From Candidatus Latescibacterota bacterium (lineage in GTDB: Bacteria > Latescibacterota > UBA2968 > UBA8231), in the NCBI GenBank assembly GCA_965217585.1, contig OZ244561.1, forward strand, positions 5,792,001 through 5,856,000: a DNA stretch of 64,000 nucleotides, written 5' to 3'. Of the stretch, positions 13,901-48,883 are shown piece after piece. The translations under genes and the position numbers were made by a program. Numbering within the stretch: position 1 is the stretch's first letter; every line of letters starts with the position of its first letter. The notes beneath the pieces are model-generated. The model was not told the DNA's origin and searched no databases. It saw only the letters and a list, made by a program, of their open reading frames with translations.

Positions 13901-13973
13901 CTACGCAGCCTGTCCGCGCATCATCGCCAGAAACCGCTGAGCATTCCCGGCAAAGTGATCTTCGATTTCCGCG
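13901..13973 (-). repeat. Displaced second copy of the amidohydrolase 3' end
   Basis: 13914-13973 matches 15353-15412 at 59/60 and continues to its own stop (AEIEDHFAGNAQRFLAMMRGQAA*). Confidence 0.92.
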
Positions 13974-14001
13974 AGAGGGTGGGAGACTAGGGGCAATCCC
14001 T

Positions 14002-15264
14002 TTACGGCTTGCCGATCAGGACGATCCGATTAGTGTTGGTGCCTTTTTTGCGGTTGTCCACGCCCCAGCAGTTTGCGGTTTTGGTGAACATCTGATCGTT
14101 GACCAAAACCATCAGCGGCTTGAGGCCGGCCTCCATGGCCGCGGGCACGACGAGGGTTTCCAGTAGGATTTTGCCATTGCGGACCTCGCCCACCTCAAAG
14201 GCAACAAAGCCCCCGTTTGCGAGGACCCGGCGCAACTCTCGGAAGGTGCGGGTCATCGCGGCTTGCCAGTCCGCTGGTTTTTTCAATTGCCATATAGCCA
14301 CCTCCTTGGCGTCGATGCCGTTAAACCAGCAGCGCAGCCAGTTGTCTGCTTGGTAGTTGACGATGTCCAAAAAGGGCGGCGAGGTAACGGCGAGTTGGAT
14401 GGATTCACTGACGATGGCGGAGGTATTGTCGGACGAGCTAGTTACGAGCAGGGGGATATTCGCCGTCAGCGTTTCCAGATCGTGTGCTTGCAGCTTGCTC
14501 AGTAAGGATCGCGTCTTGCGGAGGATGATGGCCTTTATGTCGCGTTCAGGCGGCACTTGAGCGCGTTTTTGGTTGATGCGTTTCTGCGACTCGATGGACA
14601 CCGCCTGATTAGGCGGCAGCGTATATACGGAGAAAAATCCCGGCGAGTGCCCGGTCAGGCGGTTGGTCGCCACCATCTGAATCCACGCATCGACGCTATC
14701 GAGTGGCCCTTCTTGGCAGCGCGTGAGGAGGTAGGAGCGCAGGTTGACGATTTGGCGGAGAGTATTAGGGTGATAAAAAATAAGGAGATCGTCCCAGACC
14801 TCGCTCGATTGATCGAGGTCCAGCGCCGTCAAGCGCGTTTCTACCTCGTTCCATGCGGGTGGATCTAGGCGAGGGCGGACTAGGCGCTCGCTGAGAGGAT
14901 TTATGTCGCAGCCAATGGGGCGGCGGCCCAACAGCGCCGCTTCGAGGACAGTGGTGCCGCGCCCCATGAACGGGTCGTACACCGCGTCGTCGGGTTGCGT
15001 CAGGCGGCTAATGAAAAACCTCGGCAATTGCGGCTTGAAACAGGCGCGATAGGAGACCTCGTGGAGCGAGTGGGCGGCGCGCTGTTTGGAGGTCCAGAAC
15101 TCGTTGACGTACACCGGAATGGAAATGGCGGGATCGGGAAAGTCGAGGATGTTCGTCTCTTTGCCAAAATCCGCAAAGGCTTGGATTTCGGCGGCGAATT
15201 CCTTGGCGTTTAGGGGCCGTAGTCGAGGAGGCTTATGGGGGAATATGGGCTGTTGTTGATTCAC
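14002..15264 (-). CDS. Orphan site-specific DNA methyltransferase (N4-C/N6-A type)
   Basis: SAM-binding DPFMGRGT then catalytic TSPPF; GTG start at 15264 behind GGAG; no adjacent endonuclease. Confidence 0.88.
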   Translation of the reverse strand: MNQQQPIFPHKPPRLRPLNAKEFAAEIQAFADFGKETNILDFPDPAISIPVYVNEFWTSKQRAAHSLHEVSYRACFKPQLPRFFISRLTQPDDAVYDPFMGRGTTVLEAALLGRRPIGCDINPLSERLVRPRLDPPAWNEVETRLTALDLDQSSEVWDDLLIFYHPNTLRQIVNLRSYLLTRCQEGPLDSVDAWIQMVATNRLTGHSPGFFSVYTLPPNQAVSIESQKRINQKRAQVPPERDIKAIILRKTRSLLSKLQAHDLETLTANIPLLVTSSSDNTSAIVSESIQLAVTSPPFLDIVNYQADNWLRCWFNGIDAKEVAIWQLKKPADWQAAMTRTFRELRRVLANGGFVAFEVGEVRNGKILLETLVVPAAMEAGLKPLMVLVNDQMFTKTANCWGVDNRKKGTNTNRIVLIGKP

Positions 15265-15342
15265 CCCGGTCTCCAGATAGATTCTAAAGTATAAATCTGT
15301 GCTTCTTGAAGCACACTGACGCAAGCGGGCGGCAGGACCATA

Positions 15343-16335
15343 CTAGCCCCCACCGCGCATCATCGCCAGAAACCGCTGGGCATTCCCGGCAAAGTGATCT
15401 TCGATTTCCGCGGGCGTTAGTTGCAGCATCTCAGCCACTTGCCGCTCTTGGCGTAGCTGCTCGTAGATGACGAGCGTGGCCCGCGAGTCGCAGTGCGGCG
15501 TGCCGGAATCGTCCCCAGGATAGAACAGCCAGGCGCGACCATAGGTGATGTACTTGCCGCGCGCACAGCCGGCGACCACGTTGTCCGACCCGAACATCAC
15601 CCGCTTGCGGTCTTCGTGTTTCATCAGCAAATAGTGAGAATACAGGTCGTTCACCGCTGAGGTGTCGTACCATATATTGGGCAGATCGCACAGGAAGTGG
15701 ACGGCCTCTTCCATCATAAAGGAATTGAACGAGCGGGCGCAGTGGGCCAAAATCCACTGCGCGTTGGGGTATTCGCGGGTGTAGCGCGCTAAGTCGCGCT
15801 GGTTGTCTGGGTCGGCTGGGCCGGTGGGTTTGGCGAGGTGCATGGTGATGGCCAGCCTCTTGTGGTGGGCGAGTTCGATGAGGGATTCCGGGAGGAAGTC
15901 GCATATGCGGGCACCGGCTGGGTCTGGGGCAAAGGTGCGGTAGGGTTTGAGCCCGAGGAATCCATATTCATCGACTTGGGCTGCCACGTATTCGGGCGTC
16001 ATATCCGGGGTGACCATCATGTTGATCGCGGATTCGGGGTCGGCGGCAAGCTGGGCCGCCATCCAGGCGTTGTGGCCTGCGGCATCCATGCCCGGCACGG
16101 GGGTGCCCAAGGCCAGCATGTGGAAGGCGCGGCCTGGGTAGAGTTTAGCCGCCCAGTCGAGGTGATCGCGATAGTCGATCTCCTCGCGCAGGCCGGTAGG
16201 CGCACCCGTCAAGGAGCCTCGGTGGTCCTCAGACCACAGGTGCGTGTGCATGTCGTAAACCGTGGCGGGGACGAAGTCTTCGAGTTCTTGCTCCCAGAGC
16301 TGGCGGTCGAAGTCTTGATAGGTAAAAGCGGTCAT
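15343..16335 (-). CDS. Amidohydrolase family (amidohydro_2) protein
   Basis: DMHTH, GLKPY, WILAH, NIWYDTSA, VMFGSD. Confidence 0.9.
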   Translation of the reverse strand: MTAFTYQDFDRQLWEQELEDFVPATVYDMHTHLWSEDHRGSLTGAPTGLREEIDYRDHLDWAAKLYPGRAFHMLALGTPVPGMDAAGHNAWMAAQLAADPESAINMMVTPDMTPEYVAAQVDEYGFLGLKPYRTFAPDPAGARICDFLPESLIELAHHKRLAITMHLAKPTGPADPDNQRDLARYTREYPNAQWILAHCARSFNSFMMEEAVHFLCDLPNIWYDTSAVNDLYSHYLLMKHEDRKRVMFGSDNVVAGCARGKYITYGRAWLFYPGDDSGTPHCDSRATLVIYEQLRQERQVAEMLQLTPAEIEDHFAGNAQRFLAMMRGGG

Positions 16336-16414
16336 GGCGTTGTGCTCCTAAGCGGCGCGTTTGACAGAGAACGGCAGGCAACCTAGTGTTGCCCCCAAAA
16401 GGAGGAAATCCAAG

Positions 16415-18087: not shown

Positions 18088-18268
18088 GTTTTCACCTGTT
18101 AGAATTGATTGAGAACGATATGCAAAGTACGCGCACTTGAAAAGGGAAAAGCCGCGATGCTACTGAGATTTACCTACTATTTATTGGGAGTCGAGAAAGC
18201 GGAAATCAGGCCGGGTACAACCAGACTGGTCGGCATTTTCGGTAGCAGTGAACTGAGACGAAGCGTGC

Positions 18269-18297
18269 TTGACAGGTATCAAGTGAAAAAGTAGTAT
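18269..18297 (+). promoter_or_regulatory. Sigma70-like promoter
   Basis: TTGACA-17 bp-TAGTAT upstream of the AAA ATPase cassette. Confidence 0.6.
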
Positions 18298-19585: not shown

Positions 19586-19587
19586 CC

Positions 19588-33620: not shown

Positions 33621-33809
33621 GTGAACACATTGACAAAGGACGCAAGAGATCGACTTTGGGAGGAAGTCAGGGGGGAGTTTCCGCAGGACGAGATGATGCA
33701 GGAGGTACACTTCGTACGTCTTGTACACTTTTTACAGACGAAAGATCTTACTCCGGAAGAACGTGTAAGATTCTTTGGACAGTCAGAAAAGGCTGACTCG
33801 ATCTCATAA
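33621..33809 (+). CDS. Small protein, probable partner antitoxin of the PIN relic
   Basis: AGGAG RBS; EEVRGEFPQDEMMQEVH; directly follows the PIN stop. Confidence 0.55.
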   Translation: MNTLTKDARDRLWEEVRGEFPQDEMMQEVHFVRLVHFLQTKDLTPEERVRFFGQSEKADSIS

Positions 33810-33813
33810 CTCA

Positions 33814-35769
33814 ATGAACCCAATGCAATTGTGGACGTCCTATCTGCTGCCCTTGCCGCACGAGATTCGCATTGCCGACAGCGTCCGCTGTAGGCCGGGC
33901 GAAGTGGGTATTGCGCTGCGGGACCAAGCTGGGCCAATCGAGCAGCAGGGTGCCGCCGAGTTGGAAGCACTCTTCGTTGAAAAGGGAAAAGCACAGCCGG
34001 ATGGTGGAGCCTTTACCATCGACATTGGCGTGGCTCCGGCAAACAGCGCGGCCACGGAACGGCTCCAGAGCTTGAAGAACAAGGCCCAGGCGTACCTCAT
34101 TGAGCCACGGGGACGAGATGGTTTGGTGCTGACGGGTTTAGACGAGCGCGGTGTGTACTACGCCTGCCAGACCCTGATCCAATTGCTCGAACCCGAAATG
34201 AGCCAAGAGCAGGTGCACATCCCCTTGGCACAGGTGCTCGACTGGCCCGATATGGACGAGCGGGGCTTGTGGAATTTTCCCGAGCCTGCAACTTGGATCC
34301 CGTGGCTGGCCACGCTCAAATTGAACTACGGCAAAATGGCCTCGACGCAATTGCACCCCATTGAACGCGGTCGGCGCAACCGGGCCACCATCGCCCGCGA
34401 ACAGTTCGAAGCGGCGCGGCAGCGGGCGTTCAATTATCTGCCCTACATTCTGCACCTCAACTTCCTGCACGACTGCGGCCTTTTCAGGACCTATCCCGAA
34501 CTGGCCGGCAAGGGAGACGGGGCTTTGACTGGGCGCTATTTCGCCCACAAGGCGGGCAATCAGCACCGGGTTCCCTGCGCTGCGCAACCGCTACTGGTGC
34601 AAATTCTACAAGAGTGGATGGAGGATATCGCCGGGCAGGGGGCCGAGGAAATAAGCTGCTGGTTGAGCGAACGGCCGGGGCAGTGCGGCTGTCTGGAATG
34701 CTCTGCGGTGGGGCAGTTCGTGCTGGAGGCGCGGGCTTTTGTCGCGGCTTGGCGGCGGGCCCAAAAGCGCTGTCCCAATTTGCAGATTCGCATCTTTTTA
34801 TCGACCACCACCACCGTGCGCAACTATCGGGTGCTGGACGAGTTGCCTCCGGAGGTGAAGGTCGAGCGGGCCTGCGTCACCGAGCTGGAGAGGGTGCTAC
34901 ACCGGCCGCGCGATTTAATGGCCAATCCGCTGCTGGACCACTATGCCGCTGAGGGGCGCTGGATCGCCAGCTACGATGTGCCCATTGCGGCTAACGGCAA
35001 GGTGGACACGCCCGAGTTCAAGGTGCCGCAGCGCTCGGCTCACCGCATGCGGGATTACGTCGGCCAACTGGTGCGGCGGGGCTATAGCGGAGCGTACGCC
35101 ATGATGGCTTGGGGTGGTCCAGAGCGTCAGATTTGCAGCTTCAATATCCACGCCTTGGCCGAGTGGGCTTGGAATATGCAAGGTCGTGACGAGACGGAGT
35201 TCGCCTTGGCGTGGGCACGGCGGGAAGGCTATGCCCATCCAGAGGCCGTGGCCGAATGGGCCGCCTTGATGGGGCCGGTGGAATTCGACGTGTACGATTC
35301 CGATTTTCCGATATGCTATTCTTGGGGCAAGGCCGCGGAGATGGTGCGGCAGCGGCAGCGGCCTTATTTGGGCGAGGGGATGTTCCGCTATTATCTCACT
35401 GCCGAGGACTTCGACGCCAAAGTCGCGATCTGCGACCGGGCTTTGGAAATTGTCGAGGGCCTTGGGGAAGCGGAGCTGGCCCACGAGACGCGGGTGGTGC
35501 GGTCCTATGTGGAATTGGCGCGCGGCGTCTATTGGGTAGCTGAACAGATGGCCACGCTCGACTTAGGGGATATGGCAAACCAAGCGCTGGTGCGCGGCAG
35601 TCTGGATCAGTTGCAAAAGGCGGGCCAAGACAATGTCCAGGCCATTCGGGATTGGCGCGCCGGCTTGGGCAGCGAGCCGTGGCACTACCGGGTACACGAT
35701 GCTATGAAGGGCACGGAGACGACCGTGGCGGAGATCGTCCAATGCGTCGCCGACTGCTACTTGTACTGA
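33814..35769 (+). CDS. Hypothetical protein with GH20 domain-2 (zincin-like) N-terminus
   Basis: LLPLPHEI, QAYLI, DERGVYYACQTLIQL, DWPDMDERG. Confidence 0.75.
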   Translation: MNPMQLWTSYLLPLPHEIRIADSVRCRPGEVGIALRDQAGPIEQQGAAELEALFVEKGKAQPDGGAFTIDIGVAPANSAATERLQSLKNKAQAYLIEPRGRDGLVLTGLDERGVYYACQTLIQLLEPEMSQEQVHIPLAQVLDWPDMDERGLWNFPEPATWIPWLATLKLNYGKMASTQLHPIERGRRNRATIAREQFEAARQRAFNYLPYILHLNFLHDCGLFRTYPELAGKGDGALTGRYFAHKAGNQHRVPCAAQPLLVQILQEWMEDIAGQGAEEISCWLSERPGQCGCLECSAVGQFVLEARAFVAAWRRAQKRCPNLQIRIFLSTTTTVRNYRVLDELPPEVKVERACVTELERVLHRPRDLMANPLLDHYAAEGRWIASYDVPIAANGKVDTPEFKVPQRSAHRMRDYVGQLVRRGYSGAYAMMAWGGPERQICSFNIHALAEWAWNMQGRDETEFALAWARREGYAHPEAVAEWAALMGPVEFDVYDSDFPICYSWGKAAEMVRQRQRPYLGEGMFRYYLTAEDFDAKVAICDRALEIVEGLGEAELAHETRVVRSYVELARGVYWVAEQMATLDLGDMANQALVRGSLDQLQKAGQDNVQAIRDWRAGLGSEPWHYRVHDAMKGTETTVAEIVQCVADCYLY

Positions 35770-35782
35770 GGGGTCATTAGGT

Positions 35783-37612
35783 GTGAGTGAGCGGATAAGT
35801 CGGCTATCTACCCTTGTAAGTCTCCTGCCGCGTTTGCTGGCGTTTATTTGGCGAACCAGCCCGTTCCTCACCTCTGTTGCCGTGCTGCTGGCGATCGGTA
35901 ATGCCGCAGTCGTTCCTTCCCAGATTTGGCTTACTAAGGTCATAATCGATCAGATCGCCGAAAACGTATCTTCAGCTATAGAAGGCAGCTATGCGCTAAC
36001 CAACTTTGTTCTCCCAGTCGCTGGTATCGTTGGCATTTGGATACTTGGCGTAATTACTCAATCTCTTGCCGTGCATGTCCGGCGGCTTCTTGGCCAGCGG
36101 AGTAGCCACCGGGCACGAATGCAGGTGTTTGCCAAGATGGCGGCGTTGGACCCGGCGCTCCTTGAAACTCCTGCTGTGCATGACTCATTCAACAATGCAC
36201 TGGAGGAAACAGAGCAGGTTCACGAGACAGCGTTCTTTGTGTTCGGTTGGATTTCTGATCTGTTGTCCTTGGTTGCAATAATCGGACTGCTCGCACATAT
36301 ACATCCTGGGGCGGTCGTGGTGATCATCCTCACTGCTGCCCCTGGAGCAATTGCACAGGCTGGCTTTCTCGCCCATTACTACAACATAGTTCGCGGAAGA
36401 TCTGAACTACGTCGCCGGGTCCAGTACCTTGGCGACCTCTTATCGAACGCGCCAGGGCTCCGTGAACTAAGGCTCTTTGGGCTAATAGAATACTTGTTAG
36501 ATCAGTATCGCCGATTGTGGAAAGTACAACATGCTGATGACCGCAACCATTGGCTGCGCCTAGGTCGGACCGATTTGCTTTATGGTTTATTGTCTGTTGC
36601 CGGCACTCTGGCAATTTGGTGTTACGCAATCTTCCGTGGTCTCATGGGCATGATCACCATCGGCGACGTTAGCTTGGCCTTCCAAGCTGCCGAGCAAGGA
36701 CGCTCCCGTTTCAACAGTGCTTTTGGTAGCGGCGCTCGGGGTTTTGAGCGCCTATTGTATGCGTCGAACCTTTTTGAGTTCCTGGATCGGGAATGGGAAG
36801 ATGCTGAAGGAAGACTCCAGTCCCTAGGCACAAAAGGTGTTGCCATTCCTAAGCCCATCCAAAAAGGGATCGAATTCCGCGACGTATCGTTTTGCTATCC
36901 AGGGTCTAATGAGTACGTGCTGCGCAATATTTCCTACCATCTTCCCGTCGGGCATACGACGGCTATCGTCGGTCCTAATGGAGCTGGCAAGACGACGCTA
37001 ATTAAGCTGTTGGTTCGACTATACGATCCAACCGAGGGGGCGATTCTGGTAGATGGAATAGACCTGCGCGAGGTCGAACCCGAGGCGTGGTGGCGTCATG
37101 TGAGTGTTATCTTCCAAGACTTCCAGCGCTACAATCTATCTGCACGGGAAAACATCGGCTTTGGCGAATTGCAGCACTTGCATGACGACGATAAACTCAT
37201 GCAAGCAGCACGCCTTGCTGGAGCTGAGACGCTGATACAACAGTTCCCGAGGGGACTTGACACCATGTTTGGCCGCATGTTCTCCGACGGGATCGAAATT
37301 TCCGGCGGGGAGTGGCAGCGCATTGCCCTTAGCAGAGCGTTTATTCGGGATGCACAAGTAATTGTATTGGACGAGCCGACGGCAGCGCTCGATGCTTTCA
37401 CCGAGCAGGCAATATACGAAGGATTCGCGCGAGCGATTGTCGGCAAAACAGGGTTGTTGATCTCGCACCGATTTCCCACTGTTCGCATGGCGGACAGTAT
37501 TCTCGTTCTAGAGGATGGGCAACCCGTTGAACATGGAACGCACGAGCACCTCATTTCGACAAACGGCCTCTATGCCGAGATGTTCACAACTCAAGCAAAT
37601 CAATACAGGTAG
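35783..37612 (+). CDS. ABC transporter, fused permease/ATPase
   Basis: TM domain, GPNGAGKTT, ISGGEWQRIALSRA, VLDEPT, ISHR; lower GC than upstream gene. Confidence 0.93.
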   Translation: MSERISRLSTLVSLLPRLLAFIWRTSPFLTSVAVLLAIGNAAVVPSQIWLTKVIIDQIAENVSSAIEGSYALTNFVLPVAGIVGIWILGVITQSLAVHVRRLLGQRSSHRARMQVFAKMAALDPALLETPAVHDSFNNALEETEQVHETAFFVFGWISDLLSLVAIIGLLAHIHPGAVVVIILTAAPGAIAQAGFLAHYYNIVRGRSELRRRVQYLGDLLSNAPGLRELRLFGLIEYLLDQYRRLWKVQHADDRNHWLRLGRTDLLYGLLSVAGTLAIWCYAIFRGLMGMITIGDVSLAFQAAEQGRSRFNSAFGSGARGFERLLYASNLFEFLDREWEDAEGRLQSLGTKGVAIPKPIQKGIEFRDVSFCYPGSNEYVLRNISYHLPVGHTTAIVGPNGAGKTTLIKLLVRLYDPTEGAILVDGIDLREVEPEAWWRHVSVIFQDFQRYNLSARENIGFGELQHLHDDDKLMQAARLAGAETLIQQFPRGLDTMFGRMFSDGIEISGGEWQRIALSRAFIRDAQVIVLDEPTAALDAFTEQAIYEGFARAIVGKTGLLISHRFPTVRMADSILVLEDGQPVEHGTHEHLISTNGLYAEMFTTQANQYR

Positions 37613-37628
37613 GGATTGTACCACTAAC

Positions 37629-37679
37629 ACGACCGTGGCGGAGATCGCCCAATGCATCGCCGATTGCTACCTTTACTGA
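37629..37679 (+). repeat. Displaced second copy of the 3' end of gene 33814..35769
   Basis: 46/51 identical to 35719-35769; TVAEIAQCIADCYLY* vs TVAEIVQCVADCYLY*. Confidence 0.9.
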
Positions 37680-37690
37680 AGGAGGGAAAC

Positions 37691-38677
37691 ATGACTGAGC
37701 AAAATAATGCACTGTCCCAGGAAGAAATGGATTTTAAAGCATGGCAAAGGGCCGCCTGGGAAGAGGTTGAGCAGTTCCGCGAGACGGCAGAGGATTATTT
37801 TGGTGAGGACAACCCCCAACATCGACTCGCCGCAGAATTTTTCCAGATGTATCTGGAGAAGAGGCCTTCAGAGATAGCCACAAAGGCTTTGTCCAATGCT
37901 TTCACCATGTGGGGAAATCTGAAGGGCGTCAGTGACCAAGTTCAAGCGGCCCTCAAGCACATTTCTTATACCGAAGATGTGTGGGATGAAGTCAAGTATG
38001 GTTTGTGGAACAGTTCCGCACGTGATGGCCGAGAAAAAGAAGCAATTCTCCTATTGGAGGAATTGGTCGAAAAGGTCGTTCCCTTGAAGAGTCGATCGTC
38101 CTTGCTGTGCACTTTAGCCGATATTTGGGAACTCGAAGGTGAGACGGGAAAAGCTCGTCGAGGATTTGAACAAATCATCGCATGGGATGCTTCTGAACGG
38201 CATGTAGATCACGCCCGAGGACATCTGTACGAGCTTGACACTTTAAACGTCGGACAGTTGGCCCCTCAATTCAGGTTGTCCGATATAGATGGCAATCACA
38301 TAGATCTTGCAGATTATCAAGGTAAAGTCGCGGTTTTGCATTTTTGGAGTACAACCTGTAGCGGGTGTAAATTTATTTACCCTTCTCTGCGCAACATTGC
38401 CCAGGAGTATTCTGAGGACGAGGTAGCCCTCATTGGTATATCAGATGATATAGACTTTGATGCTCTTCGTGCTGCGATAACGGAAGAGCAATTCACGTGG
38501 CCTCAGATATGTGAAGGCAATGGCTGGCAAGATACGGTTTTTAAGCTCTACAATGTGGATAGAATGCCTATCGAGTATATCATTGATCGAGGTGGAAAGA
38601 TAGCCTTTAAATTCGGGGGCGGGGGCAAAGGTAGCGGTGAAGAGCTTGAAGAAGCAGTGCGATCTCTCGTGATTTGA
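37691..38677 (+). CDS. TlpA/redoxin-family protein with helical N-terminal domain
   Basis: GQLAPQF, LHFWSTTCSGC (CxxC), YNVDRMPIEYIIDRGG; AGGAGG RBS. Confidence 0.85.
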   Translation: MTEQNNALSQEEMDFKAWQRAAWEEVEQFRETAEDYFGEDNPQHRLAAEFFQMYLEKRPSEIATKALSNAFTMWGNLKGVSDQVQAALKHISYTEDVWDEVKYGLWNSSARDGREKEAILLLEELVEKVVPLKSRSSLLCTLADIWELEGETGKARRGFEQIIAWDASERHVDHARGHLYELDTLNVGQLAPQFRLSDIDGNHIDLADYQGKVAVLHFWSTTCSGCKFIYPSLRNIAQEYSEDEVALIGISDDIDFDALRAAITEEQFTWPQICEGNGWQDTVFKLYNVDRMPIEYIIDRGGKIAFKFGGGGKGSGEELEEAVRSLVI

Positions 38678-38821: not shown

Positions 38822-39871
38822 CTACACGTAGCGCCCCGGGAGCTGGTGTTTGGCAACGAGGGAGCGGACAGATTGCCCTACCACGTTGAACGGATTCGGG
38901 AAGTTATCCGCCAGTGCAAAGGCGGCTGGATTGGCCTTGCCCGCTGCGCCGAAGAGATCGCCAAAGCTCAAGGCCGGGTTGACGGTGATAGAGAAGGTCA
39001 ATGTGGCGGCGGCTCCTGCGCTGTCTTGCGCCGTGTAGGTGATCTCGACGGCCCCATCGGTGGCGGCTGTGGGCGTGCCCGAAATCGTCCGCGTGGCCGC
39101 GTCAAACGACAGGCCAGTAGGCAAGCCTAAGACGCGGTACGTTACCTCGCCTTCACCGCCCGTAGCTTCCGGCAATACCAGCGCACTAATCGCCGTACCA
39201 GCGGTGTATGCTTGGTCTTCGACCTCTTCGGCGAAACCGAAGGCCAGCTCTCCATCGTCCTCTTCGCCATCGTCCATCTCGCCGTCGGAATCGGCCGTCG
39301 CTTGACCGATGGCGGTAAAGGTTTCGGGTTCAAGCCCCTCAACGGTAGCCGTAACGGTGTTGGTCCCCGGATCGCTCCCCAGCGTCAGCGTGCTTCTGGC
39401 TCGACCATTGGCATCGGTGGTGGCGGTGGTGGCCGAGAGCGTCCCTCCACCGGCCGTGACCGAAAAGGTGACGACCGCCCCGGCAAAGGCCGACCCGTTT
39501 TGATCCAACACGGAAACGACGAATGGCTTGGCCAACGCCGCGCCGACAGTGCCTTCTTGTTCATCGCCGGAGACTTTCGTCAAGGTATGGGGCATGGCCT
39601 GCTCGACGGCGGTTATCGTCTGTCCGCCAGTCCACTCAGATAAATCCCACAGTCGTACTATGTAAGATGAATTCTCTGCCAAAAATCTCATGTCGGAAGA
39701 AAAATCCAATTCCTCAATCCGCCCGACCGGCGGGAAGCTGACGATAGGCTTTCTTGTAGCCACATCCCATAGCTTGACCGATGAACCCCCGATCGTACTG
39801 GCTTGACCGGTTCCTCCCTTCACACCATCTAAATCAACCCATCTTGTCTGCGACGCCGACGCGGACGCCAA
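38822..39871 (-). pseudogene. Truncated paralog of the WD40/Ig protein (WD40 remnant, Big_1 domain, He_PIG-like Ig domain, truncated C-terminal domain)
   Basis: 39280-39650 closely duplicates 41073-41443; LPTGLSFDAATRTISGTPT; ends shortly after ADNFPNPFN. Confidence 0.75.
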
Positions 39872-39906: not shown

Positions 39907-42900
39907 TTACCTTAGCAGGGTAAATTTTTGGGCAAAACGGCCTTCAGGGGTTGTCAACCGATAGAGATAAACGCCGCTGGCCCAAGCCGAGGCGTCCATA
40001 GATATCGTGTGATAGCCAGCCGCTTGAAACCCTTCGTGCAGGACCGCCACTCGTTGTCCGTTAAGGGTGAAGACCTCCAGTCGAATATCAGAGGCGGTTG
40101 GCAACGTATAAGAAAGGATCGTCTCGCTGTTAAAGGGGTTGGGATAGCTCGGGTTGAGCGTCGTCGTGGCTGGTATGCCGGTGTCTTCTTCGACATTGAC
40201 CTCATATTGCTGCACGACCGCGTCTGTATCGTAGTCGATGAGCAGGATCTTTGTTCGCCCTGCTTGGCACGCTTTTACATGCAGGCTCCAGCCATCTCGG
40301 CGCCCCCTTGTGGGTCTATCGTTGCCTTCGGCTGGACAGTAGGCTCTGGAGGGCACCTGTTGGCCGCCGGCGATCTCTATGGCCGGATCGGAGCCGGACG
40401 GGTTGGCTCTCACCAGCACGCTGTCGAGGTTGGTGTGCACTGTAAATGTTTTCCACGCTGGATCGTCGGCATAGAATTCGACCTCAGACGGATCGGGCAC
40501 CAGCCATGCTTGGGGCTCGCTGGCCGAATCATTGTCGATGATTTTGATATTGATCCGAGCTTGGTGTCCACTCGACGAAGTAGCCTGCACCGCGAAGGCC
40601 CTATCCCCATCCGCCGTCGTGTTGTCCTTGGGCGTCAGGGTAAGCTGCGCCGTGCCCGTTCGCTGGCCTTTTGCAATGGTGAGGGTTTCTGGAAATGTCG
40701 CGTCGAAGTCCTCACCGCGCTTGGCTGTCTTGCCTTGTGTTGGAGAGACAAGGGCGAGTGTGATCGTCTCGTTAGCCGCCACGGCTTTGTCCAACGTCAC
40801 GGTCAGCGTGATGGTCGTTGCCTGCCCGTCGTCCTCGCGGACCGAATCATGGCTTGCGGATATACCCTCGAGCGCAACCGTGGCCGTTGGCTGCTCCTCG
40901 GACTCGGGTTGATCCTCGCCGGAGGCCTCGTCATCGGCTAGCTCGCCATCGTCCTCGCTATCAGCCACCTCGTCCTCGGAATCGGTGGTTGGCTGCTCCT
41001 CGGACTCGGGTTGATCCTCGCCGGAGGCCTCGTCATCGGCCAGTTCGCCATCTTCCTCGCCCGAAGCCTCTTCGCCGTCGGAATCGGTGGTCGCTCTTCC
41101 GATGGCGGTAAAGGTTTCGGGTTCAAGCCCCTCAACGGTAGCCGTAACGGTGTTGGTCCCCGGGTCGGCCCCCAGCGTCAGCGTGCTTTTGGCTCGGCCG
41201 TTGGCATCGGTGGTGGCGGTGGTGGACGACAGCGTCCCCCCGCCAGCGGTGACCGAAAAGCTGACGACCGCCCCGGCAAAGGCCGACCCGTTTTGATCTA
41301 ATACGGAAACGACGAATGGCTTGGCCAATGGCTCGCCGACCGTGCCTTCTTGTCCATCGCCGGAGACTTTCGTCAAGGTATGGGGCATGGCCTGCTCGAC
41401 GGTGGTTATCGTCTGCTCGACGGTCCACTCAGAAACATCCCATAGCCGAACCCTTTGATCGCTTGACCCGACGGCCAGAAGGGCCCCGTCGGGAGAAAAC
41501 GATACATCAGAGAGAAAGCCCGGATTCGCGAAGGTGGTGGCAAGCTGCCTGCTGGCCACGTCCCACAGCCGGACATGGCCCTTTGACCCGACGGCCAGCA
41601 GGGCCCCGTCGGGAGAAAACGACAGCGAACTGCCCCAACTCTCAGGCTGGAGGGTGACCTCTTGTCCGGTGGCTACGTCCCACAACTGATTGAAATCTCC
41701 TGAGGTGGCCAGCAGGGTGCCGTCGGGAGAAAACGATACATCAGAGATATAGATATAATCGCCCCTAGGCTGGAAGGTGTCGACTTTTTGCCTGCTGGCT
41801 ACATCCCACAGCGTGACCGCGTCCTTGTTCTCTCCTGCCGCCTCTGCGATGGCCAGCAGGGTGCCGTCGGGAGAAAACGACAGTGACCTGACCCAATCCG
41901 CTTGGAGGGTGGCGACCTGCTGTCTGCTCACCACGTCCCACAGTGAGACCGCGTTCTCTCCTGATCCCCCAATAGCCAGCAGGGTGCCATCGGGAGAAAA
42001 CGCCAACTTAAAATCCCAACTCCCAGGCTGGAGGGTGGCGACCTGCTCTCTGCTCGCTACGTCCCACAGCGAGACCTGCTCCTCTGCGATGGCCAGCAGG
42101 GCTCCGTCGGGAGAAAACGACAGCGCGGTGCTCCAATACTCAAGCTCAAGGGTGGCCACCTGCTGTCTGGTGGCTACGTCCCACAGCCGGACCGTAGGAA
42201 TAAGTTCCTCTGAGGTGGCTAGGAGGGTGCCGTCGGGAGAAAACGATGCCGATCTGATATACGCTGTATGGTCGAGGGTGGCGATGTGGTATGATGAAGC
42301 TTTCGAAAGCCCAATACTCGCGCCGTGGGTCACCTCCCCATCTGTATCAACTACCTGAATAGACAGGGAATGAACCTCAGGATCTGAAGGATCCCGACGA
42401 TAGGGGGGAATCGAGACATCATACTCGAATTCGACGATGGCGTCTTTTTCACCGTCCAATCCACGGCATGCTGCCAATCCTCCCAGTCCGGCGGCGCCGC
42501 TGCTTTCTTTTCTTTCCACGTCAATCAGGAGCACCTGATGAAGCCCTTCCGCATCGCTGACCTTGAATCGGACGGAGATGATGGTTGATCCGGCCGGATA
42601 GTCCGACGGCGAAATCATTTGGATGGTGGATGGGTCGCTGAGGGTTCCCCCTCCGAAGACACTACGACTGAGGCTCGTTTCTCCTCCAAGGGATATATCA
42701 GAATTAAAGTAGGGGTGCACGGACAAAAATTCGGCGGCGCACGCCGACAGTCGATCTGGGTTGCCGCCATACGACATGATGTAGGCATCGTCGCGGAAGT
42801 CGTGCCACAAGCCGAAAGTATGCCCAAGCTCATGGGCTATTGTGCTAAAGTGAAGGCTACTAGGAACCAACGTAATTCCGCCACGTTTGCCAAAATCATT

Positions 42901-43463
42901 ATTTACTCCTCCGGCCTTATAACCATCTACATCAATTGTGCCTGTACTATTGTCAATGACGATGAGGTAATCATTGGCCAAGACATCAAATTGAAGCGGA
43001 CCTTCGCCAAAGAATATCTCGTCAAGCACCTCTATAGTAGTGTTGTTATCATAGTGCCTATGGGATGCTGCCCATCGACTCGATGCACCAGCGGCTCGCC
43101 TTGGGCATCGGTTTCAATGCGGAAGGTTGTGTTGCCGTAGCCATGCGCTTGCATCTGCTCGGCATAAAAGGTCTGAACCCGGCGCATCATCGTTTTCATT
43201 TCATCAACCACTTCTTGACGATACGGACGGTCATTGGGCAAGAAATAGATCATCCGCACCGTGCGCTCCTCACCCACGTTCCGATCGGCCAGCCGCTTGC
43301 CAGCAGAGAGGGGGTGATCGCGCTGCCACCGCTCGTAATCGAACGGCAAGCAGAAATGCACGCTATCAGCCGGCGAGGGCGACGCATGGGCCACCGCCAG
43401 CGGCGAAAGAATCAGGCCGATTAACGCGCAAAGGGGGTACGATGTGAAGCAATACCGTTTCAT
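39907..43463 (-). pseudogene. Secreted Zn-metalloprotease/WD40/Big_1 protein with T9SS-type/FlgD-like C-terminal domain, split by a 1-bp frameshift near 43060
   Basis: Signal peptide at 43463; HELGHTFGLWH; 7 SFSPDG..LWDV repeats; SYPNPFN tail; adding one base after GQHP joins the two ORFs (GQHPDRHYDNNTTIEVLDE). Confidence 0.8.
40886..41055 (-). repeat. Intragenic acidic tandem repeat, 102-bp period
   Basis: DGELADDEASGEDQPESEEQPT occurs twice. Confidence 0.85.
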
Positions 43464-43856: not shown

Positions 43857-44040
43857 GCCTTTCAGATTGGCCAATCTGAAAGGCCTGCGTGAGGGGCGCG
43901 TCGTCCGTCATTGGGTGAGCAGGCACGACAGTGCCCACGGCACCGTGCGGGAGTAAGACACCCCTCACGCTAGGTTGTCGCTCCGAACAGATACAGGGGC
44001 CTTGGGCCCGTATTACAAGTGTGGAGGACAGCACCCATTA
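43857..44040 (+). ncRNA. IS110 bridge RNA
   Basis: 5' hairpin 43857-43884; target loop with CGTCATT (43906-12) and GCGGGAGT (43947-54); donor loop with ACAGATAC (43987-94) and TACAAGT (44014-20), matching target and IS ends. Confidence 0.85.
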
Positions 44041-44059
44041 TAACAGGGAGGCTACCAGC

Positions 44060-45001
44060 ATGAAAGTCGTTGCCGGTATAGACGTAGGAAAAAGCAGTCT
44101 GGACGTGTCGGTGTCGGCGGGTCCGGTGCGTCGATTCGACAACGCCCCCGCGGGCCTTTCGGCCCTGGTGGGCTGGTTGGAGCGCGAGGGGGCGACCCAC
44201 GTGGTGTGTGAATCGACCGGGGGCTATGAGCGGGAAGTGGTGCGACGGTTGCGGAGCACGGCATGGTCGGTGCACATAGCGCACCCCAACCGAGTGCGCC
44301 ACTTCGCGCGGGCGGCTGGCCGCCAAGCCAAGACCGACGCGCTGGACGCGCAGATGCTGTCGCGGTATGGGCAGGTATTCGAGGTGCCTAGCTCGGTGGC
44401 GGCGGCGGCGGACAGTGAGGTCCTGCAAGACCTGCTGCGCCGACGCAAGCAGTTGGTGGACCAGCGCGTGCAGGAGCGCCATCGGCTGGACCAAGGACGG
44501 ACCGAAGCCGCCCGCACCTCTACCCAGCGGCACCTCCAGTGGCTGGATGAAGAGATCGGACGGTTGGAAGAGGAATACCGCAAGGCGTTGGAAAACAGCG
44601 GCGAGTTGTCCGAGTCCGCGGCCCTGTACCGGAGTGTGCCGGGCGTGGGCGAGCTGACCGCGGCCACGCTGGTAGTGTATCTGCCGGAGTTGGGGCAGTA
44701 CCGTGGAAAGGAGTTGACCTCGCTGGTGGGACTGGCCCCGTGGTCCAACGACAGTGGGCGCCAGCAGGGGTATCGCTCGATCCGGGGCGGACGGGGAACC
44801 GTGCGTAGGGTGTTGTACCTGGCCGCCTTGTCGGCGATACGCTACAACGACGACCTGAGCCGTTTCTATCAGGGACTGCGCCAGCGGGGCAAGACGGGCA
44901 AGGTGGCGGTGGTGGCGGTGATGCGCAAGCTGCTGCTGTTGCTGAACGCCATTGCCCATCGAGGAACGCCCTGGGTGGAACACCAGGCCCCAGCAGGGTA
45001 G
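44060..45001 (+). CDS. IS110 family DEDD recombinase/transposase
   Basis: GIDVGK, CESTGGYE, KTDALDA, SVPGVG, GLAPWSNDSG, VAVMRKLL. Confidence 0.95.
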   Translation: MKVVAGIDVGKSSLDVSVSAGPVRRFDNAPAGLSALVGWLEREGATHVVCESTGGYEREVVRRLRSTAWSVHIAHPNRVRHFARAAGRQAKTDALDAQMLSRYGQVFEVPSSVAAAADSEVLQDLLRRRKQLVDQRVQERHRLDQGRTEAARTSTQRHLQWLDEEIGRLEEEYRKALENSGELSESAALYRSVPGVGELTAATLVVYLPELGQYRGKELTSLVGLAPWSNDSGRQQGYRSIRGGRGTVRRVLYLAALSAIRYNDDLSRFYQGLRQRGKTGKVAVVAVMRKLLLLLNAIAHRGTPWVEHQAPAG

Positions 45002-45030
45002 AAAAGGGCTGGACGCAGAACACAGATACT

Positions 45031-45133
45031 CCCGCGAAAGAACGTCACCCCGTGCCCCGACACGGGGCGGGAATCCAGCCCAGCGCCCTAGCCTCAAACG
45101 GCCTTTCTGGATGCCTGCTTTCGCAGGCATGAC
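45031..45133. repeat. REP-like palindrome doublet (GTCATTCCCGCGAAAGCGGGAATCCAG family)
   Basis: Right half with nested hairpin CCCCGTG..CACGGGG (45031-45078) and inverted copy CTGGATGCCTGCTTTCGCAGGCATGAC (45107-45133). Confidence 0.8.
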
Positions 45134-45328
45134 ACCGGGACCGCACAGGCACCAAGCGGGCGGAAGAGGCTGCCCTAAGAAGACAGAGGCTGCGTAACAT
45201 CAGTCAATAATTTTTCGCTGGAGTCCAATTTCTGAAAATTCGAGGGCGAGACGCCCTCAATCCCAGATGCTTTGATGAAACGCGGCGGCAACAATCCTCT
45301 TCACTTGGGCTTTACCCAGTTTCGGCTC

Positions 45329-45384
45329 CTACACGCAGGTTTGCGGCGGCCCGTTAGCTTGAGCGCCGTGCGGACCAGCGGGGC
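45329..45384 (-). repeat. Internally deleted copy of the argE 3' region
   Basis: 45338-45384 identical to 47931-47977 (47 bp), fused to CTACACGCAG = argE last 10 bp including the stop. Confidence 0.9.
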
Positions 45385-45732
45385 CTTTATCTGCGTGCCG
45401 GGGTTCCACCAGCGCTTAGAGGCGTGGCTCGACGCACTGCCGGAGGGGCCAATCCCCGCGAGCAAGACCTGCTGGCTTTGGGAGCGCATCACATCGGTGC
45501 CGAAGCGGGCGACTTGGTTATCTGGCGCACTACCCTGCCGCGCGTGGCGCAGTACATCACCATGAGTCCAGCAGGCGAGGGTGAAGAGGCGCGGCGGTTG
45601 CGCACGGACTTTTGGCAGCGGCGGTTGTCTGGGTTAGGGCGCTACGCTGAGGAACGCGAGTACTACGAAGAAAAGACGGCTGAGTTGACGAGTGTGGGGC
45701 GGAAGCTGGCTGGGGTGGATCCTTGGGATTGA
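45372..45732 (+). pseudogene. PhyH-family dioxygenase C-terminal relic
   Basis: AFICVPGFHQRLEAWLDALP / AEAGDLVIWRTTLP-RVAQYITM..LTSVGRKLAG; frameshifted, distal His segment missing. Confidence 0.65.
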
Positions 45733-45851
45733 GGGAGGGAGAAGCGCAACTACGACTTGTCTCGGTTTTTTAGCATAAAGGCCATGACCGCTAGGACCGC
45801 AATAAGCATGACTAAGCTGCCAACGACGGTGATTTTTAGCAAAAGTCTATA

Positions 45852-46711
45852 GAAGCTGTTGAGTTAAAAACGTATCTTTGTAAGTTATTTGGTACCATAG
45901 CCCTATTGCTGTAGGAGGATTCTGTTATGCCAGGGTATCCAAGTGACTTGACGGATGAAGAATGGGCGTTGATCGCCCCTTTTTTTGACCGCCCCGATCC
46001 TCGGGGTAATCCGGGTCGGTATGAAAAACGCGATGTGGTCAATGCCATTTTGTATGTGCTCAAAGGGGGCATCCCGTGGCGGATGATGCCGCTTGATTTT
46101 CCGCCTTGGGATACGGTCTATGATCATTTTCGTCGCTGGAATAAACGCGGCGTGTGGGAGCAAGCCTTGGACTTTCTCAATGAGCAAGCGCGCCTAAAGC
46201 AAGGCAAGAAGCCACAGCCCACCTATGCGCTTTTGGATTCGCAATCGGTCAAAACGCAGTATGCTAGTCAGGATCGAGGCACCGATGGGGGAAAAAAAGG
46301 TCAAAGGCCGTAAACGCCACCTCGCCACCGATACGCTGGGCAATATGCTCGCGATCCAAGTACATGCAGCCAATGTAGCCGATACCAGCCAAGGCTGGGA
46401 AGTGTGTGATCGCGTCGCAGAAAAGTATGATTCGGTCGAAGCCTTCTGCGGCGACCAAGGCTATCGCGGCACTACGGTTGAATTCGTCGAGAACCTGCTG
46501 GGGTTACGACTCGACATCACCTCGAAACCAGCGCAAGGATTCCAAGTGATTCCCAAACGGTGGATTATCGAACGAACCTTTGCTTGGTTGGGTGGATTTC
46601 GGCGCTTGGCCAAGGACTTTGAAATCCTCACCCAATCTGCAGAAAATATGATCCGGATTGCCATGATTAAAATTACCGTCGCTAAATGCATCTGAATAAC
46701 TCAACAGCTTC
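45852..46711 (+). mobile_element. IS5-family element (IS1031/IS427-like), intact
   Basis: Perfect TIR GAAGCTGTTGAGTTA / TAACTCAACAGCTTC with TA duplication. Confidence 0.92.
45927..46695 (+). CDS. IS5 transposase, two ORFs joined by a probable -1 programmed frameshift
   Basis: YPSDLTDEEW, DFPPWDTVY, DSQSVK; GGGGGAAAAAAAG near 46287-46299; KGRKRH, DQGY, KRWIIERTFAW..RRLAKDFE. Confidence 0.9.
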
Positions 46712-46998
46712 TAAGGCTCTAGCGATGGCTCGTAGACCAATAAGAACGATACTCCGATGGCAAGAACGATGATCCATGTTGCTAGACGTAGGCGATGAAT
46801 GGGTTTGGGCAGGTTGCGCCTGAAGAGGGAAGGAATGCATTCAGCAGCTATATAAAAAGCTGTTCCTAAGACTATTTCTAAGATTAGAAGCGACATAAGC
46901 GTCTCGTAGTGTTCTACCTGACGTGTGTGTCGGCTGGCGTTCTTGCAAGAAGCGGGTCGTGTGATCGTCGTACCCAACAGAACAGCGCTTCAACTATC

Positions 46999-47076
46999 CC
47001 TCTACACGCAGATATGCTGGATGAAGCGGGCGTAGAGATCGACGCTGGTGCGCAATTGGTCGGTTTTGATCCATTC
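46999..47076 (-). repeat. Displaced second copy of the argE 3' end
   Basis: 73/78 identical to 47750-47827; EWIKTDQLRTSVDLYARFIQHICV*. Confidence 0.92.
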
Positions 47077-47140
47077 CATCCCGCGAGCGGCGCGTGATGG
47101 ACCAAACGAATCGCATAGAAAATCGTCTCAAGACACCCTC

Positions 47141-47494
47141 TTAGAGTGCTAACACTTCGCGGAGTAACCTATCCACTTCTGCTTGCAATTGTGGACCAAG
47201 ATGGCCGAGACGGCGGGTAATGACCGACCGTTCTACTGTAGCCAATTTATGCATCCGGAAGACAGACATAACGCGCAAGCCTGTCAGGATAAATTCCGGG
47301 TGGTTGGGCTCAATGGTATAATCGGTGGGAGCGAGCGTACCGCGCACAACGCTAGAAATCGCCACGAGTACCATGTCGTGGCCGAATTGCCCTTGGGACA
47401 CGATTACTGCGGGGCGAAGGGAGGCACCAGTCAAATCGGTAAATGGAAACCGCGTCAGCACCACATTACCGCGTGCGAGCGTTGGGTGCGTCAC
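47141..47494 (-). CDS. PemK/MazF family toxin
   Basis: RGNVVLTRFPFTDLTGASLRPAVIVS, TGLRVMSVFRMHKLAT; GTGA overlap with upstream gene. Confidence 0.88.
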   Translation of the reverse strand: MTHPTLARGNVVLTRFPFTDLTGASLRPAVIVSQGQFGHDMVLVAISSVVRGTLAPTDYTIEPNHPEFILTGLRVMSVFRMHKLATVERSVITRRLGHLGPQLQAEVDRLLREVLAL

Positions 47495-47721
47495 ACCGGT
47501 TCTCCGTCTTCGGAGGAGTAAATATCTTCCCCTTCCTCTTCCCAAAAGCCAAATGCGCCACTTTGTTCGACCAAACGCATGATATCCCATGTTGGCACAT
47601 CATCTTCCTGCCTTTGCACGGTAATCTCTTCATAGCGCTGTGCCAATTCCACCAGCCGTTCTAATTCGCTCTGTGGAACCAGCACTTTCTCACCGATACA
47701 TTGGATGTGAATTGTTGTCAT
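47491..47721 (-). CDS. Putative antitoxin
   Basis: 76 aa, acidic GAFGFWEEEGEDIYS tail, coupled to the toxin. Confidence 0.75.
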   Translation of the reverse strand: MTTIHIQCIGEKVLVPQSELERLVELAQRYEEITVQRQEDDVPTWDIMRLVEQSGAFGFWEEEGEDIYSSEDGEPV

Positions 47722-47752
47722 TTCGCCTCTCAGGGTTTTGAGAAGACAACCT

Positions 47753-48883
47753 CTACACGCAGATATGATCAATGAAGCGGGCGTAGAGATCGACGCTGGC
47801 GCGCAGTTGGTCGGTTTTGATCCATTCGTTGGCGGTGTGGGCTTGGGCAATGTCGCCTGGGCCGAGGACGATCATTTGTTTCATCTTCTCGACAAAAGCC
47901 ATGCCGTCGGTGCCGTAGGCCACCGTGGTGGGTTTGCGGCGGCCCGTTAGCTTGAGCGCCGTGCGGACCAGCGGGGCGTCCACCGCGGTATAGAGTGGCT
48001 CGCCGCGATGCTTGAGCGCGAAGTCGAGGCCGTGCTTTTCCGCGCTTTTGCGGCTTTTGTCGATCAAATCATCGACGTCGATGCCGGGCATGGGGCGGTA
48101 GTTGAGGGTGCAGATGCTCTGGGCGGGGGAGATGTTGGTGGCGCGGTTGTGATCGTTGATGCCGATGCACCACTCGGAATGCGGCGGTGCGAATTCCTCG
48201 TTGCGGTAGCGGCGCGCGCTGAGCACCCGCTCGTTGAATCGCTTCATCTCCGCGAGAAAGGGAATCATCTTGAGGTTCGCGTTGATGCCCTTCAAGGTGC
48301 TGGTGTGCGCGGGGCGTCCCTTGGCGGTGACTTGGATGGCGAGCGAGCCTTTGTGGGCGTGGACGACGCGGAGGCTGGTGGGTTCGCAGATGATGCCGCA
48401 GCCGGTGCTGGCCTCGGCAAAGAGCTTGGAATGGGCCGTGACCTTTTGCGCGCCGACGCCGTGAACCTCTTCGTCGGCTGTGACGACGATGTAGAGCGGG
48501 GCAGTGAGATCGGCGGCCTTGAAGCGGGCGGCCGCGCAAATCGAAGCGGCAAGAGGGCCTTTCATGTCGCAGGAACCGCGGCCGTAGAGCTTGCCGTTGG
48601 CCTCGTAGGGGTCGTAGGGATCGCGGTGCCAGCCGTCGGCGGGATTGGCGGGTACGACGTCGTCGTGGCTCATCAGGGCCAGCCCGCCCTCTCCGGTGCC
48701 CAGCTTGCCGACGATGGAGAGCTTGGCCACGCCCGCCTCATCTGTGTAGGGTACCTCTTCTATTTGGAAACCAAGCTGGTCTAAGACTCCAGCTATGTGT
48801 TGGGTGACTTCGACGTTGCTGGTTTGGCTTTCCGAGGGATAGGCGACTATTGCCTTGGTCAGTTTGACGACATCGAGTTTCAT
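47753..48883 (-). CDS. argE: M20 family metallopeptidase, acetylornithine deacetylase-like
   Basis: SHDDVVP, GKLYGRGSCDMKG, ADEE, CEPT, AHKG, GPGDIAQAHTANE. Confidence 0.85.
   Translation of the reverse strand: MKLDVVKLTKAIVAYPSESQTSNVEVTQHIAGVLDQLGFQIEEVPYTDEAGVAKLSIVGKLGTGEGGLALMSHDDVVPANPADGWHRDPYDPYEANGKLYGRGSCDMKGPLAASICAAARFKAADLTAPLYIVVTADEEVHGVGAQKVTAHSKLFAEASTGCGIICEPTSLRVVHAHKGSLAIQVTAKGRPAHTSTLKGINANLKMIPFLAEMKRFNERVLSARRYRNEEFAPPHSEWCIGINDHNRATNISPAQSICTLNYRPMPGIDVDDLIDKSRKSAEKHGLDFALKHRGEPLYTAVDAPLVRTALKLTGRRKPTTVAYGTDGMAFVEKMKQMIVLGPGDIAQAHTANEWIKTDQLRASVDLYARFIDHICV

Follow-up and report, generated by a model that had tools for sequence, protein, structure and literature searches.

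Insertions bracketed by duplicated gene 3' ends and free of recombinases in a genome of Candidatus Latescibacterota

Results

Three genes whose 3' ends recur behind accessory DNA

The window studied here is a stretch of 64,000 nucleotides (nt), C1:5792001-5856000, in the genome of a Candidatus Latescibacterota bacterium (here denoted G000), which consists of one contig of 7.32 Mb with 59.5% GC and has an estimated contamination of 6.9%. At three loci of the window (denoted A, B and C) a host gene is followed by a cassette of accessory DNA and then by a short second copy of the gene's own 3' end, which we call the orphan. Relatives of this DNA were found mainly in sponge metagenome runs, and 30 further species-level genomes of the same genus served for comparison. 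The features of the three loci, with open reading frames (ORFs) and the basis of each assignment, are as follows.

12849-13895 (+): GFO/IDH/MocA oxidoreductase, convergent neighbour of locus A (Pfam, sequence)
13901-13973 (-): distal orphan of locus A, amidohydrolase 3' end; repeat 13914-13973, native tail and stop 13901-13913 (...RGQAA*) (repeats, translation)
13974-15352 (-): cassette of locus A, 1379 bp, orphan N6/N4 DNA methylase, ORF 14002-15324 (Pfam, sequence)
15343-16335 (-): amidohydrolase host gene (Amidohydro_2), tail RGGG* unlike the native one (Pfam, translation)
33775-35769 (+): host gene with GH20b domain; proximal repeat 35712-35772 including the stop (Pfam, repeats)
35783-37612 (+): cassette gene of locus B, ABC transporter (ABC_tran and ABC_membrane) (Pfam)
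37622-37682 (+): distal orphan 3' end of locus B, stop 37677-37679 (repeats, empty sites of G012 and G013)
37652-38677 (+): AhpC/TSA thioredoxin-like gene, native downstream partner of the GH20b gene (Pfam)
46999-47076 (-): distal orphan of locus C, argE-like 3' end, stop 47002-47004 (repeats, translation)
47077-47749 (-): cassette of locus C, 673 bp, antitoxin-like ORF and PemK/MazF-type toxin (Pfam, sequence)
47753-48883 (-): M20 peptidase (argE-like) host gene; proximal repeat 47750-47827 including the stop (Pfam, repeats)

The cassette of locus B measures about 1850 bp. The cargo is tightly packed at all three loci, its end lying 15-64 nt upstream of the orphan, and Pfam profiles detect no mobility genes (integrase, transposase, phage) in the cassettes. 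Each distal copy adjoins native downstream DNA and translates in frame to a stop, with few and mild amino acid (aa) changes. At loci B and C the duplication covers the stop codon and 2-3 nt more.

The repeat of locus A (13914-13973 and 15353-15412, spacing 1439) is 60 nt long and identical at 59/60 positions, the single difference being silent. Homology stops 9-12 nt short of the stop in both copies, and the tails differ, RGGG* in the proximal copy and RGQAA* in the orphan, whose stop lies 5 nt from that of the convergent GFO gene. The methylase likely starts at a GTG near 15264; its cassette includes about 28 nt of 3' flank and, upstream, a promoter-like AT-rich stretch with a palindrome. This palindrome (GTGCTTC nn GAAGCAC, at about 15287-15306) has TT at its centre in G000 and AA in the congener G001; an operator or terminator role is possible.

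At locus B the repeat (35712-35772 and 37622-37682, spacing 1910) spans 61 nt with 52/61 identities (85%), and its core by k-mer scan 51 nt with 46/51 (90%, 5 mismatches); the copies differ by V>A, V>I and silent changes. The ABC gene starts 13 nt past the GH20b stop and ends 15-16 nt before the distal repeat. Behind the orphan come AGGAGG and an ATG at 37691, which is probably the true start of the thioredoxin-like gene, and this is the same GH20b/thioredoxin-like junction as at empty sites.

The repeat of locus C (46999-47076 and 47750-47827, spacing 751) has 78 nt with 73/78 identities (94%), the differences being A>T, D>Q and silent changes; at 3/5 differing sites both states are found in other species. 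The antitoxin-like ORF, of about 76 aa and with no Pfam match, has its ATG 28 nt past the repeat, and the orphan adjoins a small-ORF region (46711-46977), as that region does in G043.

A repeat search of the window placed the three repeat pairs in separate families, and a search for terminal inverted repeats (TIRs) at the cassette ends gave 0 pairs for A and B and 0 pairs anywhere for C. Direct repeats of at least 40 nt within 10 kb number 2452, mostly in repeat proteins, against 26 inverted ones; inverted repeats being so few, the three duplications are not chance. A preliminary description of the window, drawn from its letters alone, had named the three duplications and the kinds of gene involved (Pfam agrees on Amidohydro_2, N6_N4 methylase, GH20b, ABC, M20 and PemK), had seen copies kept in frame with a stop and with silent or conservative changes, and had found neither TIRs nor sequence shared among the repeats, all of which is borne out. 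Its suggestion that host C-termini are swapped fits locus A, with its two tails, and does not fit B and C, where the duplication includes the stop.

Empty sites and other contents in congeners

Single-copy empty sites are known in congeners for A, B and C, and the contents of the same sites vary; deletion between the two repeats could secondarily have produced the empty state. G019 and G005 have the GFO and amidohydrolase genes directly adjacent, with a single repeat and the native tail. The junction of methylase and orphan is common to G000, G001 and G011, so the event at locus A predates these species. One private change of G011 is present in both copies, which indicates gene conversion, and the proximal copy of G001 has the native tail, the spacer and a TGA. 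In G010 and G013 the amidohydrolase (tail RGGG* or RGGV*) is followed directly by the methylase with no orphan, a donor-type layout, and other DNA (7.8 kb in G010, 3.7 kb in G013) separates methylase and GFO. Since deep members of the genus also have DNA there (0.9-1.2 kb between amidohydrolase and GFO), the slot is an old one, and emptiness may be a secondary condition.

Two further observations concern the methylase. About 1 kb of extra DNA, probably an insertion sequence (IS), interrupts its 5' end in G001 (L014, about 2211-3201). A GC-rich palindromic element of the GGGGGCGGTTTG-AAACCGCCCCC type abuts its stop in G010 (L016, about 9630-9660) and G013 (L021, about 3320-3430); it occurs twice in G013 and looks like a small repeated palindromic element.

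Locus B is empty in G012 and G013 by sequence and in G044, G022 and G002 as judged from overlapping match coordinates. The structure of G000 recurs in G024, and G021 has the GH20b and ABC genes with no orphan and with other DNA behind, again a donor-type layout. A separate event at this locus was found in G010, where a 245-nt insert with a small ORF lies inside a 170-nt duplication of 92% identity. Its proximal copy ends in ...TACTTGTAC TGA, as in 6 other cargo-bearing genomes, its distal copy ends in ...TACCTTTAC TGA, matching the empty sites, and most sites at which the copies differ are sites with both states found in other species.

The empty site of locus C is seen in G043, which lacks the toxin-antitoxin pair there and has the small-ORF region joined straight to argE. 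In most species some 90 nt separate argE from the gene at 45424-45732; behind argE of G005, G007, G008 and G013 stand other inserts, 0.7-3.1 kb long, and antitoxin-like DNA occurs at unrelated loci in five species. Around copies of the methylase and toxin-antitoxin cassettes in other genomes, flanking or array-like repeats were found at 2/7 loci (L024, L025), and no relevant repeats at the other 5/7 (L026, L027, L028, L013, L018). The first of these, in G002, is an array of small toxin-antitoxin-like cassettes that follows a gene of 347 aa; between the cassettes lie copies (816-869, 1777-1830, 2528-2558) of an element of 54 nt whose start is just past the stop of that gene.

Gene-end duplications across the genome

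We scanned G000 by a 13-mer seed-and-extend search combined with our own codon-usage gene caller (5426 genes, 87% coverage), scoring direct repeats that are 35-200 nt long and separated by 300-10000 nt, with one copy on a gene end and the other in uncalled DNA. The scan found 40 events in 7.3 Mb in which a 3' gene end has its orphan downstream; gene 5' ends with the orphan upstream numbered 19, and the two wrong-side control classes 10 and 10. A gapped BLAST recount gave 49 3'-end pieces downstream vs 16 upstream, 12 5'-end pieces upstream and 2 downstream, and 32 internal pieces downstream and 37 upstream; in a BLAST scan for longer orphans, remnants were not separable from tandem paralogues. 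Nine 800-kb windows of G000 hold 6, 3, 1, 8, 7, 3, 3, 3 and 6 events. The controls were two partly sampled class-level relatives: G025, of another family (800 kb), has 1, 3, 1 and 4 in the four classes, its single 3' event being a simple-sequence repeat, and G040 (400 kb) has 0 in all four. At the rate of G000, 6.6 events were expected in these 1.2 Mb, P(1 or fewer) = 0.011, and we take the enrichment over class-level relatives as indicative.

The lengths of the 40 repeats run from 36 to 197 nt, their frequency falling continuously without any favoured length. The repeat ends at -3 to +7 nt, counted from the last base of the stop codon, in 24/40 events (median 2.5). Six events of tandem-paralogue families were removed for tests of boundaries and GC content, leaving 34. 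Among those with a native spacer of at least 30 nt, 12/20 still have their boundary in this range. No motif, base preference or symmetry appeared at the four junction types in the 34 events, and no shared cassette ends were found; the cassette's start codon stands 0-12 nt behind the boundary in about 8/34. Short filler DNA at cassette ends, searched against the genome, matched only itself. Insert GC is below that of the flanks in 26/34 events, by a mean of 3.7 points (-3.7), and in 23/34 the insert has no other genomic copy.

The 40 inserts range from 382 to 8803 nt, many being one gene of 0.4-1.4 kb, and the first gene of the cargo shares the strand of the host in 23, lies on the opposite one in 12 and was not called in 5. 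A Pfam survey of 20 single-gene inserts other than the three cassettes identified one each of HATPase_c_4, DAO oxidoreductase, GmrSD, polysaccharide deacetylase, DUF5615/PIN-like, a large CHU_C protein, YhcG nuclease, radical SAM, PD40 and GFO/IDH/MocA, and two each of PhyH, PIN and DDE transposases; four had no Pfam match. Thus 2/20 are DDE transposases and 18/20 unrelated genes. The YhcG/DUF1016 nuclease gene lies inside a 51-nt duplication (G000:C1:2789566-2794541, L143); in G019 and G021 the same nuclease stands behind the next gene and is preceded by a 3'-end piece of the upstream gene.

The tyrosine recombinase profile PF00589 has 5 matches genome-wide, 0 of them inside inserts and 0 in the window, and the serine recombinase profile PF00239 has 0 matches genome-wide. 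An island near 3.36-3.39 Mb contains an integrase, with several events close by. Thus the preliminary description, which had called the phenomenon recurrent and integrase-free, is upheld by the 40 events, by the recount (49 vs 2-37 in control classes) and by the recombinase profiles. Its size range for the cassettes, 0.7-2 kb, was too narrow, the inserts measuring 0.4-8.8 kb.

The junctions recur in separate genomes, that of locus A in G000, G001 and G011 and that of locus B in G000 and G024. Read evidence came from Logan contigs. Runs X19 and X20, among which the source sample may be, have contigs that match 46742-47604 and 46807-47604 with 0 differences and span the distal copy and the toxin of locus C. 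None of the 15 joints listed, of 71, skips exactly one cassette. Runs X23 and X1 have low cover on parts, and those populations are mostly without the cassettes.

Divergence between the copies

We compared the two copies in 32 events, those left once the six events of paralogue families and two nested second copies had been set aside. The 195 coding differences fall on the three codon positions as 43, 37 and 115 (59% third position), and 116 are synonymous vs 79 non-synonymous. A duplicate followed by free decay of one copy, with the other under constraint, is expected to show 46% third-position differences, and pure decay is rejected (P = 1e-4). Between species, third positions account for 72% of the differences in orthologues of four host genes, and for 75% in their last 150 nt. 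About half of the divergence appears to be allelic, because 59% sits between the 46% of decay and the 72% of orthologues. The claim that the copies are two alleles and not decayed duplicates thus stands in part: the third-position share exceeds decay and falls below the orthologues, and both pure models are rejected. This pattern, together with the variants of G010 and locus C, fits a foreign allele that may have been imported with the cargo.

A templated patch and other features near the loci

One further feature was found beside locus C.

45338-45384 (no strand assigned): exact 47-nt copy of the internal argE segment 47931-47977 (repeats)

The patch lies 2.6 kb from its argE source, at the junction that truncates the gene at 45424-45732, which is longer in relatives, and its joint has about 9 nt of imperfect microhomology. 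The patch shows templated repair at work in G000. Two mobile elements lie in the same region. An IS110-family transposase (DEDD_Tnp_IS110 and Transposase_20) occupies 43931-45001 (+) and has a 100% identical copy at G000:418508-419648. An IS piece with a DDE_Tnp_1 fragment occupies 45850-46711, with several copies in G000 and congeners; the contigs of runs X19 and X20 also include a form that skips exactly 45850-46711.

Between loci B and C, the ORF at 38822-39871 (-) stands directly behind a WD40/Big_1 gene of 1040 aa (39907-43029, -). It contains WD40, Big_1 and He_PIG pieces, and 300 nt of the WD40/Big_1 gene (41051-41350) are repeated in it (39258-39557) at 89% identity; the ORF may be a long displaced C-terminal module.

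Discussion

Comparison with known systems

Integrative elements rebuild the 3' end of the gene that they target (attL/attR). Like them, the inserts described here leave the gene intact and are bracketed by a direct repeat of its 3' end; unlike them, they have no integrase in or beside them, no common att core and many different targets. They differ from transposons and insertion sequences in the absence of TIRs from the three cassettes and in duplications of variable length, 36-197 nt. The cassettes resemble those of integrons in being small, often promoterless and about one ORF in size, in standing serially behind an expressed gene, and in the arrays of G002. Unlike in integrons, the repeats are copies of the neighbouring gene and not attC, and an integron integrase was not found nearby (attC was not searched for). 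Microhomology-mediated break-induced replication and fork stalling with template switching (MMBIR/FoSTeS), known mainly from eukaryotes and Escherichia coli stress models, produce templated insertions, flanking duplications and junction microhomology; the 47-nt argE patch, templated and with microhomology, is like their products.

Insertion with long target duplication was reportedly described by the Kobayashi laboratory (Nobusato et al. 2000, Gene 259:99). The later survey by Furuta, Abe and Kobayashi 2010 (PMC2853133) gives cases in which direct repeats of 30-420 bp, single-copy at empty sites, lie on both sides of restriction-modification genes, orphan methylases or mcrA, with no mobility genes and mostly in competent species; the mechanism is left unexplained there and the phenomenon is treated as target duplication. 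The events of G000 likewise have repeats of >30 bp and of variable length, one copy at the empty site, and inserts of <20 kb; the three cassettes are without mobility genes, and 2/20 of the other single-gene inserts are DDE transposases. As in the Haemophilus influenzae cases of that survey, the repeats overlap gene 3' ends, and both there and here orphan methylases are among the cargo. They differ in that the survey gives a few cases per comparison, with restriction-modification genes, against about 40 in one genome here, with toxin-antitoxin, nuclease, transporter and metabolic cargo. The restriction-and-modification cargo of the 2010 survey is found at none of our three loci, A holding an orphan methylase only, B an ABC transporter and C a PemK pair. 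In addition, the boundary keeps close to the stop codon, and part of the divergence between the copies looks allelic.

The model of homology-facilitated illegitimate recombination (HFIR), or C-terminal displacement, proposed for orphan arrays of type VI secretion system (T6SS), Rhs and contact-dependent inhibition (CDI) genes (PMC5361080), has a conserved upstream gene as anchor, as our loci would have, new DNA coming in behind it, and an old 3' end that, as here, is displaced downstream and retained as an orphan; in that model repeated rounds lead to arrays. There the genes are polymorphic toxins with variable C-termini, unlike the ordinary enzyme genes that would be anchors here, where the orphan is a short piece, probably without function. 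The preliminary description had presented the events as being of an unknown kind; they fit what both papers describe (PMC2853133, PMC5361080). They are best filed as a known kind of event, unusually common and rich here. In a narrow literature search we found no genome-wide account of long target duplication with general cargo.

Origin of the duplicated gene ends

We adopt homology-anchored illegitimate recombination, one of the mechanisms offered by the preliminary description, as the best explanation, and see about as much chance of its being right as wrong: the structures would be recombinase-independent insertion scars, that is, insertions with long target duplication that arise through homology-anchored import and an illegitimate second junction. 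DNA of a related lineage, in which the conserved gene X is followed directly by other genes, would pair with the resident X, and an illegitimate joint would connect the far end of the incoming DNA to a point in the resident gene's final 35-200 nt. The imported 3' end of X and its cargo would then lie upstream, and the displaced resident 3' end would remain as the orphan on native downstream DNA. The shared sequence would end at the stop since, after many rounds of turnover, only the coding part would be conserved between lineages, and selection would retain only events that spare the genes on either side together with their signals. Later, orphans would decay, with occasional gene conversion, and cassettes would be deleted by recombination between the copies, the insertions falling at hot spots of accessory genes beside conserved genes. 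As to the route by which DNA would enter, a profile search found ComEC and DprA in the genome and Ku absent, which is weak support because these genes are widespread.

Several results weigh against import of this kind. Pure allelic divergence was rejected too (P = 6e-5), and homologous replacement of one copy or the other, following a true duplication, could have brought in the allelic signal later. Microhomology of the distal junctions to a donor was not found, the 47-nt argE patch being the one place where microhomology was seen, nor was an exact donor found, and the flanks behind the cargo stops differ in every context; at locus C, the toxin-antitoxin pair stands behind argE in 0/30 other genomes, and hence no donor layout is known for this locus. 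The gene caller behind the scan is crude, and the controls are the two genomes sampled in part. Four events have identical copies (46, 54, 37 and 53 nt), and one event with a 46/46 identical pair is that at G000:161023/162263, in which a DAO oxidoreductase gene stands behind its gene X. The insertion is common to G000, G001 and G005, the orphan having 3 mismatches in G001 and 15 nt left in G005, and the site is empty in G019, G012, G006, G003 and G021. The DAO gene is found at another locus, about 90% identical, in about 15 species, and that native locus is empty in G000, where one copy of a repeat of about 9 nt, including the neighbour's stop codon, remains (G000:C1:2340171-2340179). Homology to the native locus covers the ORF only, plus about 22 nt behind and about 13 nt ahead, and X followed by DAO without the duplication was seen in no genome searched. 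The DAO event looks like an intragenomic relocation that itself created the duplication. At the native site of G012 and G044, the DAO gene is flanked by a repeat of about 9 nt that contains the neighbour's stop codon.

These points bring in a true long target duplication, which we regard as possible, if on the unlikely side. A staggered double-strand break, or a template switch to a position behind the departure point, would give copies identical at birth, with the allelic signal acquired later through exchange with other lineages. The DAO relocation with no known donor layout, the four identical pairs, the exact copy of 47 nt of argE that lies 2.6 kb off at a junction with microhomology, and the continuous falling distribution of repeat lengths all agree with it, as does the treatment of the phenomenon as target duplication in PMC2853133. 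The third-position share of 59% against the expected 46% (P = 1e-4) speaks against such an origin, as do the copies of G010, which differ mostly at sites polymorphic among species; and random breaks would need added selection to place 12/20 of the events with spacers of at least 30 nt within -3 to +7 nt of the stop. It is this clustering in 24/40 events, with start codons 0-12 nt behind the boundary in about 8/34, the rate above that of two relatives and the array-like repeats between small cassettes in G002, that could point to a dedicated trans-acting system, an unknown or guided recombinase setting ORF-sized cassettes just past stop codons. We think this very improbable: the 34 events have no boundary motif or symmetry, a result that also tells against the unknown trans-acting recombinase of the preliminary description, no shared ends or TIRs were found, the repeats are anything between about 9 and 200 nt long, the cargo may have either orientation (same as the host in 23, opposite in 12, uncalled in 5), and no candidate enzyme was found, with 0 serine recombinases and the 5 tyrosine recombinases elsewhere.

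Less credit still is due, in our judgement, to the idea, of very low probability, that the repeats are attL/attR sites in decay, left by integrative elements whose integrases are gone. It can appeal to the like restoration of 3' ends and to the integrase island near 3.36-3.39 Mb with its several events, against 0/40 inserts with an integrase, 40 different targets, many single-gene inserts and variable repeat lengths. As for an assembly artefact from co-occurring strains, related strains are indeed present in the setting (mixed variants, an IS-less form in the runs) and contamination is put at 6.9%; yet the genome is a single contig, and because the junctions recur in separate genomes and the contigs of X19 and X20 match without difference, we hold this to be hardly credible. 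Taken as a whole, the earlier interpretation keeps its recurrence, its freedom from integrases and, in part, its alleles, and loses its novelty, the general swapping of C-termini, its size range and its recombinase.

One further reading of the scars deserves mention, though we consider it improbable: the clustering at stop codons and the ORF-sized, often promoterless cargo may stem from more than selection and reflect a directed process. For example, breaks at zones of transcription termination or convergent transcription would be repaired by copying or capture of gene-sized DNA, and the cassettes with their flanking repeats would then pass from strain to strain by pop-out and RecA re-integration. 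If true, the 3' end of any core gene would be an attachment site without a recombinase.

How accessory genes enter hot spots without mobile-element genes is an old open question. The material described here comprises about 30 genomes at species level, of which many are closed, and offers dozens of clean events together with matching empty sites; it could serve as a natural data set on the mechanism. Defence, toxin-antitoxin and ordinary metabolic genes can join operons without a recombinase, and the orphan gene ends they leave are usable as markers of past gene flow between lineages.

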